Shown in pieces: positions 2,581-57,662 of a stretch of DNA of 64,000 bases. The notes beneath the pieces were generated by a model. That model made no database searches. It was not told where the DNA came from and worked only from the letters and a program-made list of their open reading frames with translations. A program made the translations under genes and the position numbers. Each line of letters starts with the position of its first letter. Positions within the stretch are counted from its first letter, which is position 1. This DNA comes from Candidatus Hodarchaeota archaeon (GTDB taxonomy: Archaea > Asgardarchaeota > Lokiarchaeia > Sigyniarchaeales > SOKP01): contig JBHLJY010000012.1 in the NCBI GenBank assembly GCA_048887225.1, positions 10,710-74,709 on the forward strand, read 5' to 3'.

Positions 2581-3006
2581 TTATACCTCCGTTTTTAGTG
2601 GATTAGGTCCTAATTCCTTTAATTCTTCCACGTATTCCTTGACGATTTCAGTTAATTCGGCACCTTCAGAAGCAGATACAAAGGTATATTTTACCCTTTT
2701 TGGATTTATCCCGAATTGTTCTAAATATCGATGAAGAATTGGCATTTTTCGAACTGTTTTATAATTACCTTCTACATAATGACAGTCGCCAGGATGGCAG
2801 TGACTAACTAAAACACCATCAGCCCCGTTCATTAGAGCATCAATTACGAATTGAGGATCAACACGTCCTCCGCACATGACTCTAATGATTCTCAAATTTG
2901 CCGGTCGTTGCATACGAGATGTTCCTGCTTGATCCGCTCCTGCATAACTACACCAATTGCAAAAAATTCCCAATATATATGGATTAAATTCTGTTTGACT
3001 CGCCAT
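2581..3006 (-). CDS. mvhD: MvhD [2Fe-2S] subunit
   Basis: FCNWCSYAGAD, RVMCGGRVD, HCHPGDCHY and VSASEG motifs. Confidence 0.95.
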   Translation of the reverse strand: MASQTEFNPYILGIFCNWCSYAGADQAGTSRMQRPANLRIIRVMCGGRVDPQFVIDALMNGADGVLVSHCHPGDCHYVEGNYKTVRKMPILHRYLEQFGINPKRVKYTFVSASEGAELTEIVKEYVEELKELGPNPLKTEV

Positions 3007-3008
3007 TT

Positions 3009-4997
3009 TTATTCACCTCTAGGATTAGATTCTTGTTTGACCGCGGTTTTTATCATAGGTAAGATCTGTGAATCTCCAAATTGATTTTGGACGATTGCTT
3101 TATTAGGACATGCTGATACGCATGTTCCACATCCTTTACATAATATTTCATTTATCTCAGCAATTCTTTCATATTCATTAAATGTTATCGCATTAAAAGC
3201 ACATAAGCTTAAACAACTTTTACATCCAGAACATAAATGACTAAGAACATAGGAGTAATAGGGTTCAATTTCTACTTCTCCTTGCGCCATTAATGCTGCT
3301 GCACCAGAGGCAGCACCTTTAGCCTGTGCGACTGTATCTGGAATATCTTTAGGTCCCTGAACAGTTCCTGCAACAAAAACACCATCTGTGAGAGTATCGA
3401 CTGGGCGTAACTTTGGATGAGCTTCCATAAAGAAACCATCTTCAGATCGTTGTACATTAAATAATCTCGCTACATCTTCGGCATCACATCGCGGTTCAAG
3501 ACCAATTGACAGAACTAACAAATCCGCTTTAATTTCCACTTGTCTCTGGAGTAAAGTATCTTCACCACGCACAATAACATTATGTTCATCATCCTCGTAA
3601 ACTTCTGCAAGTCTTCCACGAATAAATTTAATTCCGTAGTTTTTTCCTGCTGATTCATAAAATTCTTCGTATCCTTTTCCAAAAGCTCTTACATCCATGT
3701 AAAATATATGAATATCTGCTTTTGGATGTTTTTCTTTATATTGGCGTGCTTGTTTTACAGCATACATGCAACATACTCTTGAACAATATTTATTGCCTTT
3801 TTTTGTAAAATCTCTACTACCAACACATTGAAGAAAGACTATACTATGAGGATCTTTCAAATCTGAAGGTCGTTTGGGCTTACCTTCTGTAGGTCCAAAT
3901 GAGCTTAAAAGACGTTCCATCTGAAAACCTGTAATTACATTTGGATATTTACCGAAACCATATTGTTTTAATACTGTTGGATCGTAAGGATCCCAGCCAG
4001 TGGCTAATATAATAGTCCCAACTTTAACATCTAAATATTCTGGTTTGTCATCATATCTAATAGCTCCAGCAGGACAAACTTCAGCACAAATACCGCATCT
4101 AATACAATGATCCATGTCTATTGTATATTCTCCTGGAACTGCCTGGGGGAAAGGAATATAAATAGCTTTGCGATCTTTCATTCCTAAATCAAATTCATTT
4201 CCACATACCACAGGACATTCTTCAGCACATGTACCACAGCCAGTACATGTTTCTTGATCAATGTAATGTGGTTTTTTCATAATAGTAACGTCAAAATTTC
4301 CGACATAACCAGAAATATCAGTTACTTCTGAATAAGTTAAAAGTTCAACATTTTTAGCATTTGCTACTTCAGACATTTTTGGGGTAATAATACAAGCACT
4401 ACAATCCATTGTAGGGAAAGTTTTATCAAGTTGTGCCATATGCCCCCCAATAGTCGGAGTCTTTTCTACTAAATATACTTTAAATCCTTGATTTGAAAGA
4501 TCTAAAGCGGCATTCATACCAGCAATACCAGCACCTACAATTAAACAAGCGGGTTCGACTTTTACCTTGGTTACCTCTAAAGGTACTAATTTACTGACTT
4601 TCGCCACGGCCATTCTAATATGGTCCTTAGCTACCTCAGTCGCACCTTCAGTATCATATAAATTGACCCATGTACAGTGTTCTCTGATATTTGCCATTTC
4701 AAATAAAAACTGGTTTAAACCGGCTTCTTCACATGTTCGTCTGAAAGTAGGTTCATGCATCCTTGGTGAACACGATGCAACAATAACTCGATTAACTAAC
4801 TCATTTTTTATATCATCCTTGATCATATTTTGACCTATATCGCTACACATAAATTTATACTCGCGTGCGATCACGACATTTGGCAAAGTTTTGGAATACT
4901 CTATTAAATCAGGAACTGAAACGATCCCACCAATATTAATCCCACAATGACAAATATATACACCTATTTTTACATCAACTTCACCCAACTTCCTCAC
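3009..4997 (-). CDS. hdrA: Heterodisulfide reductase subunit A (Cys form)
   Basis: GVYICHCG, GAGIAG, LDKTFPTMDCSAC, QCVGSR, YCSRVCC, GPKDIP and C-terminal ferredoxin. The start may be the TTG a few codons inside. Confidence 0.97.
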   Translation of the reverse strand: MRKLGEVDVKIGVYICHCGINIGGIVSVPDLIEYSKTLPNVVIAREYKFMCSDIGQNMIKDDIKNELVNRVIVASCSPRMHEPTFRRTCEEAGLNQFLFEMANIREHCTWVNLYDTEGATEVAKDHIRMAVAKVSKLVPLEVTKVKVEPACLIVGAGIAGMNAALDLSNQGFKVYLVEKTPTIGGHMAQLDKTFPTMDCSACIITPKMSEVANAKNVELLTYSEVTDISGYVGNFDVTIMKKPHYIDQETCTGCGTCAEECPVVCGNEFDLGMKDRKAIYIPFPQAVPGEYTIDMDHCIRCGICAEVCPAGAIRYDDKPEYLDVKVGTIILATGWDPYDPTVLKQYGFGKYPNVITGFQMERLLSSFGPTEGKPKRPSDLKDPHSIVFLQCVGSRDFTKKGNKYCSRVCCMYAVKQARQYKEKHPKADIHIFYMDVRAFGKGYEEFYESAGKNYGIKFIRGRLAEVYEDDEHNVIVRGEDTLLQRQVEIKADLLVLSIGLEPRCDAEDVARLFNVQRSEDGFFMEAHPKLRPVDTLTDGVFVAGTVQGPKDIPDTVAQAKGAASGAAALMAQGEVEIEPYYSYVLSHLCSGCKSCLSLCAFNAITFNEYERIAEINEILCKGCGTCVSACPNKAIVQNQFGDSQILPMIKTAVKQESNPRGE

Positions 4998-5977
4998 CTA
5001 TTTTCTTTAAAAAAGGTTCCAAGGAAATAAATGGAGGTACTCCACTCAAATCATGCTTTTTTACTAGACCAAGGCTTTCAGGTTCCATACCTAATGCCAG
5101 ACCTAATAATTGTGTGTAATAAATTACAGGTATTTTAAAAGGAGCATCAATTTTATCTTTAAAAATGTTATTTATTTCTACTTGTCCTAAATCTAGTTGT
5201 AAATGACAGAATGGACAAACAGTTATTATTGCATCGGCCCCAGTTGCAACAATGTTCTCTAATTTTTCTCTTGTAAAATCCAAAGAAATTTCTTTAAACG
5301 CTCCCCTTACACCTCCTCCTGCTCCGCAACACATTCTTTTATCTTTGTAATCTAAACTTTTGCAACCAGTAGCCTCTACTAGTTCGTCTAAAAAGCGTGG
5401 ATCTTCAACTTCAAGATCCCATGGTCTAATTTCTCCAGGTTTTAAAAGATGACACCCATAATGAACAGCTACATTTAAATCTAATTTTTCTTTTCGACCG
5501 TATTTTGTTCTATTTTTTATTTTTTCAAGTCCTATATCGTGATATAAAACTTCGATAATATGTTTAATATCAATTTTTCCCTTATATTCTCGACCGATTT
5601 TAGCGAGATGTTGATTAACCATTTTCCTTTTTTCTTTATTGTGCTTTAATGTATGATTTACTTCAAGCAAACTTCCATAACACCCATTACACATTAATGC
5701 AATATCAGTACCATTTTCTTCTGCAATTGTTATATTTCTGGCTCCAATTACTAACCATGTGGTGATATCAAATCCTCGGAAAACTCCTGGGGCGGGACAA
5801 CACGAGGCACCCTCCATATCGACCAATTCAATGCCTAATTTCTCAAATACATTTCGAGTAGCCTGCTCTATAAAAGGGTAACGATTAGGAATTGTGTCTA
5901 ATTATCTAAATGATAAATTAGTTTACACATCCTAAAAATAAGCTGTATGTCAGTTTTTTATTCTTTGATTTTCTCAT
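4981..5977 (-). CDS. hdrB: Heterodisulfide reductase subunit B, split by a 31-nt intron-like insert (exons 5923-5977 and 4981-5891; 321 aa spliced)
   Basis: SCCPAPG, CNGC, HYGCH, CCGAGGG and CPFC motifs. The N-terminus MRKSKNKKLTYSLFLGC lies upstream out of frame and joins to give FLGCVIPNRYP. Confidence 0.9.
5892..5922 (-). other. Putative bulge-helix-bulge mRNA intron in hdrB
   Basis: UUAGGA-U-GUGU-AA^A-CUAAUUUAUC-loop-GAUAAUUAG-ACAC-AA^U-UCCUAA. Cutting after the second bulge nucleotide on each strand restores the frame. Confidence 0.8.
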
Positions 5978-51580: not shown

Positions 51581-52210
51581 TTATTTTCTACAATATTTTA
51601 TAAAGTTCTTATATATCTGAATTCCGTACTTGCTTGATTTTTCTGGGTGGAACTGAGTAGCAATAATATTATCTCTACCAATAATTGAGCAATATTCAAC
51701 TTCTCCATATTTAGTAAGGCCTATAATGAGATCTTTATTTTCAGGATCCGCGTAAAAACTATGGACAAAATAAAAGTAAGAATTATTAGGAATTCCTTGA
51801 ATTAGAAAATTTTCCTTTGTCAAAAATTCGACACTATTCCAGCCAATTTGAGGTATTTTATCTACTTTTGAAATATCAAATGGAATGATGTCTCCTTTAA
51901 TCAGATTTAAACCTTCGTGCTCACCCATTTCATAACTTTTTGAAAAAATTAATTGTTGTCCTAAACAAATGCCAAATAATGGTTTTTTCTCATTTACTAT
52001 TTGAGTTATCACAGGAATAAGGTTCTTTTCTTTTAGGTGTCTCATTGCATCGCCAAATGCTCCAACTCCAGGCAAAATCACACCATCAGTATCTAATATT
52101 ACTTTCGAATCATCAGTAATAATGGTATCCACATTCAAATGTTTTAAACATTTATAGATGCTTTTTAAATTCCCCATTTCGTAATCTATAATAGCGATAT
52201 TAAATGGCAT
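51581..52210 (-). CDS. hisH: Imidazole glycerol phosphate synthase glutaminase subunit
   Basis: DYEMGNL, PGVGAF, GICLG and QFHPEKS motifs. Confidence 0.96.
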   Translation of the reverse strand: MPFNIAIIDYEMGNLKSIYKCLKHLNVDTIITDDSKVILDTDGVILPGVGAFGDAMRHLKEKNLIPVITQIVNEKKPLFGICLGQQLIFSKSYEMGEHEGLNLIKGDIIPFDISKVDKIPQIGWNSVEFLTKENFLIQGIPNNSYFYFVHSFYADPENKDLIIGLTKYGEVEYCSIIGRDNIIATQFHPEKSSKYGIQIYKNFIKYCRK

Positions 52211-52212
52211 AA

Positions 52213-53028
52213 TTATAACCTCATTGGGATTCCCGCATTTTTACATTGTTCCTTTATAATCGGAATTGGATATTCATTATAATGAAAAATAGAAGCGGCC
52301 AATGCCGCATCTGCTTTACCGATTTTAAAAGCGTCAATAATATGTTGAGGTTTTCCAGCACCTCCAGAAGCTATTATTGGAACGCTTAATTTTTCACTAA
52401 ATGTTCTAGTAAGCTCTAAGTCGAAATTATCTTTTGTCCCATCTTTATCCATTGATGTTAATAAAATCTCTCCACTTCCTAGTTCAGTAGCTTTTTCACC
52501 CCATAATACAGCGTCTTTACCAGTGGGCGTTCTACCACCATTGATATAGACTTCCCACCAACAATACTTATCTTCGATTTGAATCACCACTTTATCCCTT
52601 GCTACTTCTGGAGATTCAACATATACTCTTTTTGCGTCAATAGAAGTAACAATACATTGGGATCCAAAAATTTTTGCTCCTTCTTTAATAAGATCTGGTG
52701 TAGTAACTGCAGCAGTATTTAATGAAACTTTATCCGCACCTGCTCTTAAAATTTCTTTAATATCCTCAACATCCCTTAAACCCCCACCAACAGTAAATGG
52801 GATAAAGACTTGTTCTCCAGTCCTTTCAACCAAATCGATTAGAATTTTTCTTTTATCTGAAGAAGCGGTAATATCTAAAAAAACTAGCTCATCTGCTCCC
52901 TGATCATCATAAAATGCGCCTAACTCTACAGCATCTCCAGCATCTCTAAGATTAATAAATTTAGTTCCTTTCACAACTCTACCTTTTGTTACATCTAAAC
53001 AAGGAATAATGCGTTTTGTTAAGGGCAT
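52213..53028 (-). CDS. hisF: Imidazole glycerol phosphate synthase cyclase subunit
   Basis: [21 protein letters not shown] and IASGGAG motifs. Confidence 0.97.
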
Positions 53029-53161
53029 ACTTATTTTTCTTCTCTTTTTTATCTAAATAAATATATCACGCAAATTATTTAGGATTTACTCTGATATCGA
53101 TTAAAGTATACCATCTTAATTGATATGACTTGAAAAACTATAAAAAAATAGTTTGTTTTAT

Positions 53162-54009
53162 TTATATTCTCATTGGTACTCCATTTTTCGCACAATATTG
53201 TTTAACTTCTCTTATAGATATTTCTCTAAAATGAAAGATCGAAGCTGCTAAAGCTGCTGCTGCTTTACCTATTGTAAATGCTTCAAGGATATGATTCATA
53301 GTACCAGCGCCCCCGCTAGCCATTATAGGGAGTCCAGTCGCTTCTGCAATTCCACGTGTCATTTCTAAATCGTACCCATTTTTTGTCCCATCAAATGTCT
53401 TGCTCGTCGGCAGTATCTCCCCTACTCCTAAATCTTTAACTCTTTTCGCCCACTTAATCGCATCCATGCCTGTAGATTTCGTACCACTATGAGTCATAAC
53501 ATCAAACCAACAGAATCTATCCTCTACTTTAAAGAGAATTTTTTCTGGTGCCTCTTCCTCAGAATTAACATATACTCTATTACCATCAATAGCACAAACA
53601 AGTCTCTCTGGACCGTATTCTCTGGAAATTTTAGCTAAAAGTTCTGGATTTTTCACAGCAGCGCTATTTAGAGAAACTTTATTTGCTTTTGCCTCTAGTA
53701 TTGCTTTAACATCTTCCATGGATCTTATACCTCCTCCTACAGTAAATGGTATTGAAATTCTCTCTGCGACTTTCTTAACTAAATCTACTACAGTTTTTCT
53801 TTTTTCTAAAGTTGCTGTAATGTCTAAGAAAACCAATTCATCAGCACCCTCATCCTGATAATATCTTGCAAATTCGACAGGATCACCTGCATCCCTTAAG
53901 TTTATAAATTGAATTCCTTTTACAACCCTTCCATCTTTTACGCCGTTTTATACGATATGTAGAAAAACTTTACATCGAGGCAGGGCACAATTTTCTTATA
54001 ATCTGTCAT
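53162..54009 (-). CDS. hisF: Second HisF, split by a 32-nt intron-like insert (exons 53970-54009 and 53162-53937; 271 aa spliced)
   Basis: The spliced N-terminus is [35 protein letters not shown]. Spliced length 816 nt equals the adjacent intact hisF. Confidence 0.88.
53938..53969 (-). other. Putative relaxed BHB mRNA intron in hisF
   Basis: AUGU-AA^A-GUUUU...AAAAC-G-GCGU-AA^A. Removal restores LDVKDG. Confidence 0.7.
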
Positions 54010-54121
54010 TTTAGAAAGCTTTAATTTTAAGATTTGTTATTTAATAATCTTTAATCATCTAATAATTTAGATACTTCTTCATTATGTATGAATTCTAAAA
54101 ATTTTAAAAGAAATTTAAAAA

Positions 54122-55207
54122 TTAGTAACTTATTTCTGCTCCAGGAATTTCTTCTCTTAATTCCCTTTTCATAGTTATAGCATCTTCAGGACATGTTACT
54201 GCGCATAAACCACAGCCAACGCATTTATCTGTATTAACTTCAGCTACATCATTAACGGTTATAGCTCCAAACTTACATCGTCCTAAGCATGTTTCACACC
54301 CTACACATAATTCTCGATCAATATAAGAAATAAAGTTGGCTTTAGCTATTGATCTTGGGTTGTCTAGTCTTGTCAATCCAGCAAGCATCCCACAACAGCA
54401 TTCACAGCAATTGCAAATTATTCGAGTATTTGTAGCATCGTTATCTGTACCATGTATAAGACCAATATCAGATGCTTCTCTTACAATTTTTTTTATTTCT
54501 TCTTTTGAAGCAGCTCTAACAACAGGGTCTCCCATTTCTAGTACTGCTTTAGCAAACGATCCCATCATAATACAGTTGTGGATTGGATATTTATCTTTAC
54601 ACTCTCTTATACCTTCAATCTCTTTTCTGTTTCTACATGGACATGGTATAACAGCAAAATCATCCCATTGATCTATAATACAATATACCTCTTCTATTGG
54701 AATAATCTCACGCTCATGTTCTACTTCTTCACTAACAGTTATTACTCTCAAGCGAGGTATACCACTTCGACTAGTTTCCCATGTTTTATAATATTCGTCC
54801 TCCACAAAGAATTTTCTGCTTAATTGAGCTAATTTCACTCCATCCTCAGTACTATAAACTTCCTTCAATATAAACGGCATATCATAAATAAATAATGGCA
54901 TTGGTTGAGCATATTGTCGTCCTAATTTTATAACATACCCTTTTTTTACGTATGGCTCAAGCTCATCGATCAATTCTTTTTTCTTTTTATTAATCTTTTT
55001 AGCTAATTTCACGATTGACATTGTATCAGGAAATACAGGTAATTCTAATACTGTTTTTATAATTTCAGAATTATACATAATGCTCAAGTATTCTAGATAA
55101 GTTTCTGTTGGCTCTCCATTCTCATCCTGAGGAAATGATTGCCGCTTGAATTTCAATTTTTTTGCGAATTTTATTAAATCTGCCCGATGTTCTTCATTAT
55201 CGATCAT
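54122..55207 (-). CDS. Fe-S protein with N-terminal wHTH-like segment, Cys-rich core and C-terminal 2[4Fe-4S] ferredoxin
   Basis: PCPCR, ICNCCECCCG, CVGCETCLGRC and CVGCGLCAVTCP motifs. Confidence 0.85.
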   Translation of the reverse strand: MIDNEEHRADLIKFAKKLKFKRQSFPQDENGEPTETYLEYLSIMYNSEIIKTVLELPVFPDTMSIVKLAKKINKKKKELIDELEPYVKKGYVIKLGRQYAQPMPLFIYDMPFILKEVYSTEDGVKLAQLSRKFFVEDEYYKTWETSRSGIPRLRVITVSEEVEHEREIIPIEEVYCIIDQWDDFAVIPCPCRNRKEIEGIRECKDKYPIHNCIMMGSFAKAVLEMGDPVVRAASKEEIKKIVREASDIGLIHGTDNDATNTRIICNCCECCCGMLAGLTRLDNPRSIAKANFISYIDRELCVGCETCLGRCKFGAITVNDVAEVNTDKCVGCGLCAVTCPEDAITMKRELREEIPGAEISY

Positions 55208-55265
55208 ATTAATTACATACCTCTATAATATTTTGAAACATAATTTCTATTTGGATATACTTATA

Positions 55266-57662
55266 TTAATAACTTCTATTTTTAAAAATACCTCCAATTA
55301 ATTGTCCCGTGCTTATTCCAGCATCTCCAGGAGGTATTATATCATGTTCTAAAAATTCAAAACCACATTGAGTTATTATTCCTTTAATTGTTTTTGAAAA
55401 AGAGTAATTGTAAGCAACACCTCCAGTTAATCCAATTTTATTTATCATATTTTTTTCGGCGATATCAATGGCTACATCTGCAAAAACCTTGCCAAATTCA
55501 ATTTGAAATTTAGCGGCAATATCTTCTGGTTTATTTTTTGAATCGTCAAGTAAATTAACAATATCAAGGATTAAATCAGAAGTGTTTATGATACACACAC
55601 CGCCTTTCTCCTTGTATTTAACCTCCAATTTTACATTGCTTGAATTACCTTTAGATGCTAATCCTTCAAGTCTCATTGCGGGTTCTCCTCTATATGTCTT
55701 GATGTTACAAGCTCCCAACAAATATGATACAGTATCAAAAATTCTTCCAGTGGAGCTTGACAAAGGAATATTTTCGTTTGGAAAAGTGTTATTAGCTTGT
55801 TGGAAGTGAGATATTAAGGTTTTTAATTCTAACTCTTTATGTTCTAAATCGTTTTCAAGATTTAATTTTTTAAAAATATTCACTGAATTACCAATTCCTA
55901 GAGTTTTAAGAATAATTGAAGCTGCCATTCTAGCAGGATATTTAGTGCAACGGTCACCTCCAATCATAGGTTGATATTCTAAATGACCTAGGCGTTCATA
56001 TCCATTATACGAGCTTAATAAAATTTCACCACCCCATATATTACCATCATCCCCGTAACCAACTCCGTCTGTAGAAATACCAATAATTTTCTCATCATTT
56101 CTTATATTATTTTCAGCCATTAAACTCAATATGTGGGAAAAATGATGTTGGATGGGATATAATGGTACATTAAATTGAGCAGCTAATTCTTTTGCAAATT
56201 TAGTAGTAATAAAAGTTGGATGAGCATCGCAAGATATGAATTCTATTTCTGAATCTTTAATTTGTAAAAGTTTTTTCATGTGAAAGAGTGCTTCTTTCAA
56301 GAAATTATATGTTTCCAAATGAGCTACATTTCCTATATGCTGTGTTGGAAATATTCGATTTTTTCTTAGAACTGCTCCCGTAACTGTTAATTCTGGCCCT
56401 GTAGCTAATGCTCCGGGAATATCAACTTCAAATGGTAAAGGTAAATATTCTGGGATATATCCTCTTGATCTTCTTATCAATTTTATCTTATTGTCGTGAA
56501 TCCTTAAAACGCTATCATCCGCTCTCTGATAGATTGTTCTGTTATGCAATAGGAAAATATCCGCAAGGTGTTGGAGTTGGTCGAAGATTTTATCATTTTT
56601 TATACCCATAGGAATATTTGAAGGATTTCCACTGGTATAGACCAACGGTTTTTCTCCAATAAAATCAAACAATAAATAATGAATTCCTGAATAAGGAAGC
56701 ATAAAACCTACATTATTTAAGCCAGGAGCAACTTGATAACTAATATTTGAAATTTTTAAATTTTCTTTTCGTTCCAATAATACTATAGGTCGTCGAAAAG
56801 ATGTTAATAATTCTCTTTCTTTATTAGAAATCTTAAAATATTCTTTAACTATTTCTAGTTTTGGAATCATTAAAGCGAAAGGTTTTGATTTCCTTCCACC
56901 TTTTCGTTTCCGGAGTTTAAGGATAACATTATCATTATCACCTAAACAAACTAAATGGACTCCTCCAATTCCTTTAACAGCAACAATTTCACCTTCATTA
57001 ATTCTTTTTGAGACTTCTTTAAGAATTTCTTCAATGGAGCCTTTTTTAATTATTTCTCGTGATGTATTGTATAATTTATAATTAGGGCCACATATAGAAC
57101 AGGCAAAAGTTTGAGCGTGAAATCTGCGATTATCAAAATCGGAATATTCTTGAATACAAGAAGGATTTCCTCGTGTGCATAAAGGAAATTCAGTCATAGT
57201 ACTTCGTTCTCTGTCATATGGTAATGCTTTTGCTGTAGTAAATCTTGGTCCACAAACAGCACACGCTATAAAAGGATACATATGATATTTAGATAAATTT
57301 TTATTTCTCATATCTTTTAAGCAATTATCGCAAATTGCTATATCTGGAGGCAGAGTTAAACTAATTCCTCTGCCTTGTTCACTTTTTTTAATTTCAAGGT
57401 TTTCAAATATCTCTGAGGAAACTAATTTTTTTACATATAGACCTTCAATAAAGGAGATTTTTGGTTTTTTATTCTCTATATCTACAATAAATTTATCAAT
57501 ATCTTCAGAATTTCCCTGAAGTACTAATCTCACTCCAGCATTTCCACGGTTTAAAACGAAACCTTTCAACCCCCGATTTCTGGCTAAATTGAACAAGAAA
57601 GGTCGAAATCCAACGCCTTGAACTATACCAGTTAAATTAATTTCTACAGTTTTCTTACTCAT
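55266..57662 (-). CDS. hypF: Carbamoyltransferase HypF
   Basis: GIVQGVGFRPF, Zn fingers, RRFHAQ, KGIGG, QHH, DGVGYG and PPGDAG motifs. Confidence 0.97.
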   Translation of the reverse strand: MSKKTVEINLTGIVQGVGFRPFLFNLARNRGLKGFVLNRGNAGVRLVLQGNSEDIDKFIVDIENKKPKISFIEGLYVKKLVSSEIFENLEIKKSEQGRGISLTLPPDIAICDNCLKDMRNKNLSKYHMYPFIACAVCGPRFTTAKALPYDRERSTMTEFPLCTRGNPSCIQEYSDFDNRRFHAQTFACSICGPNYKLYNTSREIIKKGSIEEILKEVSKRINEGEIVAVKGIGGVHLVCLGDNDNVILKLRKRKGGRKSKPFALMIPKLEIVKEYFKISNKERELLTSFRRPIVLLERKENLKISNISYQVAPGLNNVGFMLPYSGIHYLLFDFIGEKPLVYTSGNPSNIPMGIKNDKIFDQLQHLADIFLLHNRTIYQRADDSVLRIHDNKIKLIRRSRGYIPEYLPLPFEVDIPGALATGPELTVTGAVLRKNRIFPTQHIGNVAHLETYNFLKEALFHMKKLLQIKDSEIEFISCDAHPTFITTKFAKELAAQFNVPLYPIQHHFSHILSLMAENNIRNDEKIIGISTDGVGYGDDGNIWGGEILLSSYNGYERLGHLEYQPMIGGDRCTKYPARMAASIILKTLGIGNSVNIFKKLNLENDLEHKELELKTLISHFQQANNTFPNENIPLSSSTGRIFDTVSYLLGACNIKTYRGEPAMRLEGLASKGNSSNVKLEVKYKEKGGVCIINTSDLILDIVNLLDDSKNKPEDIAAKFQIEFGKVFADVAIDIAEKNMINKIGLTGGVAYNYSFSKTIKGIITQCGFEFLEHDIIPPGDAGISTGQLIGGIFKNRSY

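Follow-up and report, generated by a model that had tools for sequence, protein, structure and literature searches.

A candidate BHB mini-intron in the coding sequence of a hisF paralog from a Promethearchaeota genome

The hisF-2 locus and its orthologs

The window, i.e. the whole 64-kb stretch of DNA analysed here, belongs to a Promethearchaeota (Lokiarchaeia-type Asgard) MAG of 3.27 Mb, 30% GC and 49 contigs, referred to as G000 (contig C12:10710-74709). It carries two neighbouring hisF genes, hisF-2 and hisF-1, of which hisF-2 is interrupted shortly after its start codon (ATG at 54009-54007, minus strand). The features relevant to this study are listed below.

53970..54009, minus strand: hisF-2 exon 1, 40 nt (from the ATG, 13 codons and 1 nt), encoding MTDYKKIVPCLDV-K
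53938..53969, minus strand: hisF-2 putative BHB-type mini-intron, 32 nt, sequence AGTTTTTCTACATATCGTATAAAACGGCGTAA, the final three bases being an in-frame TAA
53162..53937, minus strand: hisF-2 exon 2, 776 nt (258 codons and stop), beginning AAGATGGAAGGGTTGTAAAAGGA
52213..53028, minus strand: hisF-1, uninterrupted paralog, 271 aa, with hisH as the next gene
51581..52210: hisH, after hisF-1
5892..5922, minus strand: putative BHB intron of hdrB, 31 nt, between exon 1 (5977..5923) and exon 2 (5891..4981)

Read on the minus strand, hisF-2 runs CTC GAT GTA A, followed by the 32 nt and then AA GAT GGA AGG GTT GTA AAA GGA. The unspliced frame, MTDYKKIVPCLDVKFFYISYKTA, stops at the TAA at 53940-53938, and removal of the insert yields a CDS of 40 + 776 = 816 nt that reads PCLDVKDGRVVKG, which is the CDS length of hisF-1, with 54% identity in an ungapped alignment. 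The initial annotation had reported the 32-nt insert, the TAA at its 3' junction and the 816-nt CDS upon removal correctly in every detail; its duplicated hisF with an intact neighbour of equal length is likewise found at 52213..53028, and the insert it described in hdrB (5922..5892, 31 nt) is real. GTAAA is present at both junctions of the hisF-2 insert in G000, which enables the boundary to slide. Rfam and tRNA scans of the 64-kb window gave no match.

The two catalytic aspartates of HisF are D11 and D130 (T. maritima numbering), and both are kept in hisF-2, one in the PCLD motif of exon 1 and the other in AIDGN of exon 2. The hisF-2 product matches PF00977 with 236 bits, and in alignments with solved HisF structures exon 2 covers residues 17-251 (E = 1e-79), so that profile and structure-sequence alignment together describe a full (beta-alpha)8 barrel with both catalytic residues.

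An insert of 30-32 nt occupies the identical site in nine distinct hisF-2 orthologs, which between them contain six diverged insert sequences. Besides G000, this set comprises G008, another species of the same genus with a 31-nt insert of different sequence at the identical position; L182-184, L185 and L186, whose 32-nt inserts are near-copies of the one in G000; and L188/L193 (31 nt), L189 (30 nt), L190 (31 nt) and L194 (31 nt), all with diverged inserts. Exon 1 is intact in all nine, and exon 2 offers an open frame of 254 aa from VVKG to the stop. The 30-nt insert of L189 is in frame, yet it has a TAA inside. Since the inserts measure 30, 31 and 32 nt, a common product is possible only by precise excision. 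That the same site is filled in nine orthologs by six diverged sequences speaks against the strain-specific inactivating mutation that the initial annotation had considered as a way in which the intron reading could fail.

About 21 hisF-2 orthologs are insert-less, and the hisF-2/hisF-1 pair occurs without an insert in G006, G024, G013 and G017. The suggestion that the insert gates the expression of one paralog of a pair therefore finds no footing, as most hisF-2 orthologs do without it and the pair exists in its absence; no link of the insert to regulation was found among the orthologs compared. The gene tree is a near-polytomy with insert-bearers in six places, of which the well-supported branches force only one change, and a clade of G000 and G008 was not rejected in the AU test (p = 0.079), so the insert may have been gained once, long ago, and lost several times, or it may have been gained repeatedly. 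Moreover, compared over window 53160-54110, L182, L185 and L186 share with G000, at 90-98% identity, a 5' segment that spans the 5'UTR, exon 1 and the intron and runs ~250-300 nt into exon 2, up to about codon 100, whereas their 3' halves are 65-83% identical to that of G000 and the flanking genes are unrelated. This suggests that the hisF-2 segment, intron included, was recently exchanged by recombination among these four, which owing to the shared segment are not independent witnesses.

The gene neighbourhood varies as well. Immediately upstream of hisF-2, L185 and L188 have hypF (compared with window 54122-57662); in G000 a gene for a 361-aa Fe-S protein (54122..55207) separates the two. 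Downstream of hisF-2, L185 has a gene for a GATase_7 protein, not hisF-1. L196 (ENA contig NODE_15632) has a 174-aa hisF-2-like ORF that starts at ...KISLNSAA and is preceded by unrelated sequence; this ORF is either a truncated fragment or differently interrupted.

The BHB fold and the codon choice of the exons

The elements of the fold are given below for hisF-2 of G000, with columns referring to A1, an alignment of the nine insert-bearing sequences, and ^ marking the predicted cuts.

53977..53985, minus strand: outer helix h, 5' strand, exon 1, CCCUGCCUC (A1 columns 3-11)
53972..53975, minus strand: central helix H (4 bp), 5' strand, exon 1, AUGU
53969..53971, minus strand: 5' bulge AA^A, predicted cut between 53970 and 53969
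53964..53968, minus strand: inner helix h', 5' strand, GUUUU
53945..53949, minus strand: inner helix h', 3' strand, AAAAC, with 53944 (G) as an extra unpaired base
53940..53943, minus strand: central helix H, 3' strand, intron, GCGU
53937..53939, minus strand: 3' bulge AA^A, predicted cut between 53938 and 53937
53926..53935, minus strand: outer helix h, 3' strand, exon 2, GAUGGAAGGG, with two unpaired bases

RNAalifold, run unconstrained on A1, returned the full hBHBh' motif with both cut sites exactly at the frame-restoring junctions. The consensus consists of an exon-exon helix of 8 pairs (columns 3-11/53-62), a central 4-bp helix (13-16/45-48), bulges at columns 17-19 and 49-51, and an inner helix of 5 bp (20-24/39-43); the canonical cuts, placed after the second bulge base, coincide with both junctions. 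On this structure 94.8% of the cells are paired, a share that drops to 43-56% if partners are shifted by 1-3 columns. Both sides change in four pairs, and the covariation score was matched by 1/500 shuffles. As these very sequences also yielded the structure, the controls are lenient. Across the nine orthologs, 94.4% of the central-helix cells are paired, as is characteristic of a BHB, and the flanking outer helix h, with its 8 pairs, is 100% paired in 9/9 insert-bearers. The inner helix h' ranges from 4 to 9 bp and covaries (GUUUU/AAAAC, CAUUU/AAAUG, AUUUCUUA/UAAGAAAU). Several variants have an extra unpaired base at column 44, in L189 and L190 the central helix is mismatched at its outer pair, and the outer helix contains two single-base bulges as well as a G-A mismatch beside the 3' bulge. 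The initial annotation had drawn a relaxed BHB from the AUGU/GCGU and GUUUU/AAAAC helices; both helices hold, but the qualifier does not, as the 8-pair exon-exon outer helix was not listed there.

The position of the junctions is set by the fold despite the GTAAA repeat. A single product-preserving register in G000 (GTAA^A ... GTAA^A) combines a 4/4 central helix with a 5-bp inner stem, and PCLDVKDGRVVKG is restored in exactly this register, the sole BHB-compatible one; the same applies to the 30-, 31- and 32-nt inserts. Shuffled inserts did as well in 43/20000 cases for G000, 7/20000 for G008, where the inner stem has 9 bp, and 23/20000 for hdrB. The BHB is also what minimum-energy folding of single sequences gives for L188, L194, G008 and hdrB, with z between -2.3 and -3.9 and a value of -3.45 for the hdrB locus. 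The single-sequence fold of G000 was not better than those of shuffles (z = 0.21 and -0.88 in two runs); its central helix is weak, with two G-U pairs, and absent from this fold, and the extra G interrupts the junction of H and h'.

The most telling evidence lies in the exons. We scored the eight outer-helix pairs in each ortholog, using the equivalent positions in insert-less genes (9 vs 21 distinct genes). The exon-exon helix is 8/8 paired in 9/9 insert-bearers and 3-6/8 paired in the 21 insert-less genes (Mann-Whitney p = 2.5e-6; 3.7e-5 with near-identical introns collapsed), though the pairing and covariation statistics are possibly inflated by kinship, as the insert-bearers are not a resolved clade. 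Against kinship as the sole cause, synonymous sites are saturated between lineages (dS >1.4), and other synonymous sites of exon 1 vary. The Arg codon opposite the exon 1 CCU is AGG in 9/9 insert-bearers, compared with 2/21 insert-less genes, where it is mostly CGN or AGA. Likewise, the Leu codon is CTY in all insert-bearers and often TTR in the insert-less genes. The third position of the Gly codon, which is unpaired in the model, may be A, T, C or G among the insert-bearers, whereas the paired third position of the Arg codon is invariant. Codon choice in both exons (AGG, CTY, CCY) thus visibly tracks the presence of the intron and appears to build the splice motif.

Splicing enzymes and the proposed fate of the hisF-2 transcript

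By its gene inventory, G000 encodes both a predicted splicing endonuclease of a kind able to cut BHBs beyond tRNAs and an RNA ligase. Regarding the EndA type, which the initial annotation had thought worth determining, two EndA-domain genes were found, in the C1:186989 region and the C3:61052 region, one of them catalytic by its residues and the other devoid of the catalytic His. The first paralog finds its best alignments among the catalytic subunits of heterotetramers from Aeropyrum, Sulfolobus and Pyrobaculum, and keeps the Tyr/His/Lys triad together with the Lys-Pro-Arg of the Crenarchaea-specific loop (CSL), a loop that confers broad substrate specificity on EndA (PMC3241643). The second, with KDSAKY in place of the KEHSVY of M. 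jannaschii, looks as expected for a structural beta subunit. Judged by its residues, this pair indicates an (alpha-beta)2-type EndA, and (alpha-beta)2 EndA with an L1 loop is known from Asgard archaea (PMC5829648). The RtcB match in G000 scores 483 bits, and the rtcB gene is itself interrupted.

The hisF-2 insert displays every sequence-level feature of archaeal BHB introns, and we consider it highly likely that these 32 nt are such an intron within the CDS of a hisF paralog. Its reading as a short EndA-type intron is well supported by the comparative evidence and the enzyme inventory, and the hisF-2 mRNA is very probably spliced. The cleavage and ligation of the transcript, as well as the enzymes responsible for both, are what we infer from the insert, the restoration of the frame, the conserved and covarying structure, the adaptation of the exons, the selection acting on them and the presence of the enzyme genes. 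In the primary transcript, CCCUGCCUC of exon 1 would pair with GAUGGAAGGG of exon 2, AUGU of exon 1 would pair with GCGU at the insert's 3' end, and the GUUUU/AAAAC hairpin would close the insert. Each strand would be left with one 3-nt bulge, AA^A in both cases, the two lying 4 bp apart. The heterotetrameric EndA would then cut after the second base of each bulge, and RtcB would join ...GAUGUAA to AAGAUGG..., restoring PCLDVKDGRVVKG with the predicted junction CTCGATGTAA^AAGATGGAAGG, while the released 32-nt insert would probably be a circle.

Removal or toleration of the insert without EndA and RtcB, either through another endonuclease acting on the hairpin or through assembly of a 23-aa peptide with a product from an internal start, appears very unlikely to us. 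Public gene calls of insert-bearing hisF-2 are 185, 206, 221, 224 or 264 aa long, as opposed to the 271-aa orthologs, and these 185-264-aa products are annotated from internal starts, which would suit a two-part protein. Nevertheless, internal-start products would be devoid of strand beta-1 and the catalytic Asp, and the geometry fits an EndA substrate exactly, in that cuts after the second bulge base give the right frame. As the inserts shorten the gene calls, length outliers in ortholog clusters also offer a practical way to find more introns.

It is likewise hardly probable that the insert is an inactivating insertion or its footprint, with GTAAA as target duplication and hisF-2 as a young pseudogene made dispensable by hisF-1. 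The GTAAA repeat at both ends in G000, the adjacent intact paralog and the lack of the insert in most orthologs would all agree with such an origin. The other insert variants, however, have the junction pairs GTAAG/ATAAA, GTAAA/GTAGA, GTAAA/GGAAA and GTAAA/GCAAA, so that the 5-nt repeat is not kept and the insertion footprint contemplated in the initial annotation loses its basis; the repeat itself is explained by the motif being two-fold symmetric, each helix strand having U as its last base and then the AA of a bulge. Furthermore, nine orthologs with six diverged inserts of 30-32 nt at one site show no other lesion. The dN/dS between hisF-2 of G000 and G008 is ~0.08, compared with 0.04-0.10 for insert-less pairs, which points to strong purifying selection on the hisF-2 exons. 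Neither in G000 nor in most other insert-bearers did we find a unique substitution at otherwise invariant protein columns of hisF-2, and in codons 4-13 of exon 1 the nine insert-bearing orthologs differ almost only synonymously. The decay of exon 2, named beforehand as a sign of inactivation, is thus contradicted by a frame that is open in all nine and by the dN/dS of 0.08, and a pseudogene would leave unaccounted for the synonymous sites of the exons that are tuned to pair around the insert.

A third alternative is programmed translational bypass, with take-off at GUA (Val) and landing on the second GUA 32 nt downstream. Known bypass elements are those of T4 gene 60 and the mitochondrial 'byps' of Magnusiomyces, and the hisF-2 insert resembles them as a short non-coding gap of about 30-50 nt that interrupts a coding region and contains a hairpin and a stop codon. 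In G000 and L194 the insert lies between matching GUA codons, and only these two have identical take-off and landing codons; the landing codon in G008, L189 and L190 is AUA, GGA and GCA, respectively, and a GUA-to-GUA hop in L188 would give VEDG, not the conserved VKDG. Unlike in T4 gene 60 and the byps, the defining matched codons are hence missing in half of the variants, and they are also missing from the hdrB insert. As bypass would in addition leave unexplained the exon-exon helix and the 4-bp helix with its symmetric 3-nt bulges, we give it scant credence. An assembly or sequencing artefact, conceivable for a 49-contig MAG, is effectively refuted, as NCBI, JGI, ENA and Logan samples provide independent assemblies with inserts at the same site.

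Other candidate introns and relation to known systems

The initial annotation had extrapolated from hdrB and hisF-2 that short mRNA introns may be common in this genome, a plausible claim that draws on the hdrB case confirmed here and for which our genome-wide tests had no power. A scan of G000 for the BHB pattern combined with ORF rescue gave thousands of matches, their number rising with length, and a paralog-continuity filter retained 225 loci, many of them spurious and one strong match being an uninterrupted gene. Compared with the mirror-image topology, the true BHB showed no excess in G000, neither by ORF rescue (211 vs 199) nor at paralog-supported junctions (12 vs 10 loci), and a BHB-like fold with a rescued ORF is consequently weak evidence without homologs. 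The UGUAA^A junction common to hdrB and hisF-2 is seen in two cases and set by codons (GTA-A..), and may or may not be meaningful. A tblastn spliced-alignment screen of G000 against paralogs returned no more than 10 loci, for the most part hdrA/mvhD pairs that are split or fused; the 17-43-nt 'inserts' flagged in these were rejected, since they look like the result of gene splitting or fusion and not like introns. One paralog (C5:149436-152925) unites an HdrA-like and an MvhD-like part, whereas at window 2581-4997 (minus strand), C1:307871, C8:60199 and C16:38132 the two are neighbouring genes in different frames.

The rtcB gene of G000 is split at C13:33300-33560, with Pfam positions 1-47 and 47-426 in different frames. 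The two parts are about 26-29 nt apart, between GVGY and DINCG, with stops in between, and the insert contains a 7-bp hairpin; a canonical BHB did not fit the rtcB insert in any product-preserving register. ARAGORN found only 32 tRNA genes in this 98%-complete genome, 15 of them with odd intron calls. Non-canonical introns probably conceal many more, as has been reported for other Asgard lineages. These ARAGORN introns were too unreliable to serve as the source of a bulge consensus.

The BHB intron of cbf5 was reportedly described by Watanabe in 2002 and by Yoshinari in 2006. It resides in the coding region of the pre-mRNA of this pseudouridine synthase in Crenarchaeota (Yokobori 2009, PMC2738675). 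The hisF-2 insert is comparable in being a short intron candidate within an archaeal coding region with a BHB at the exon-intron borders, in occurring in a lineage with hetero-oligomeric EndA, and in its patchy presence and absence among relatives, indicative of gain and loss. It differs in that it is found in Asgard/Promethearchaeota, in a metabolic gene, with a length of 30-32 nt and a distance of 40 nt from the start codon, and further in that its splicing is predicted from sequence and that the exon codon choice (AGG, CTY, CCY) tracks it. In Haloferax volcanii, the HVO_1309 mRNA has a BHB intron in its 5'UTR, described in a paper (Schwarz et al. 2020, PMC7714728) where cbf5 is stated to be the only other known mRNA example. 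hisF-2 would share with HVO_1309 that an mRNA is the substrate of the tRNA splicing endonuclease; however, a homodimeric EndA cuts the HVO_1309 intron, which is located in an untranslated leader, whereas the hisF-2 insert interrupts the reading frame, which makes splicing obligatory for any product. These two, cbf5 in Crenarchaeota and one Haloferax 5'UTR, are the only published archaeal mRNA introns that we found.

Among tRNAs, non-canonical introns of Thermoproteales are said to have been treated by Marck and Grosjean in 2003. Such introns are abundant in Asgard archaea (Valentin-Alvarado 2024, PMC11291895; bioRxiv 10.64898/2026.10.13.758758), and the literature searched mentioned only tRNA introns, no protein-coding ones, for Asgard archaea. 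The hisF-2 insert resembles the Asgard and Thermoproteales tRNA introns in its two 3-nt bulges, 4-bp helix and helices h and h', in the presumed (alpha-beta)2 EndA with L1/CSL loop together with RtcB, in its shortness and in its fast sequence turnover. It is distinguished by its host RNA being an mRNA, and for this reason codons have to supply the motif's exon half.

As proposed, the hisF-2 intron would extend mRNA splicing by EndA and RtcB to an ordinary metabolic gene in the lineage nearest to eukaryotes. The nine orthologs with matched insert-less controls are rare material and make up a substrate set for studying Asgard EndA specificity in vitro. On the practical side, the truncation of insert-bearing genes by gene callers to 185-264 aa implies that pathway reconstructions from Asgard MAGs under-call such genes. 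More broadly, the excision of BHB mini-introns of 30-odd nt from mRNAs by the tRNA-splicing machinery could be routine and selectively maintained in Promethearchaeota, in many metabolic and informational genes and possibly in rtcB, a generalization that in our judgement might equally well prove right or wrong. If it were true, the closest archaeal relatives of eukaryotes would already have obligatory non-spliceosomal pre-mRNA splicing, and coding sequences in Promethearchaeota would co-evolve with their introns.

The hisF-2 subfamily is also distinct at the protein level. It carries throughout the motif GEILPTSKT(F/Y)DGTK (window 53390-53440, residues about 170-185 of exon 2), at a site where canonical HisF, including hisF-1, has GEILLTSMD(K/R)DGTK, also given as LLTSMDRDGTK. 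A paralog with this motif may have a different substrate or phosphate binding, or a different partner.
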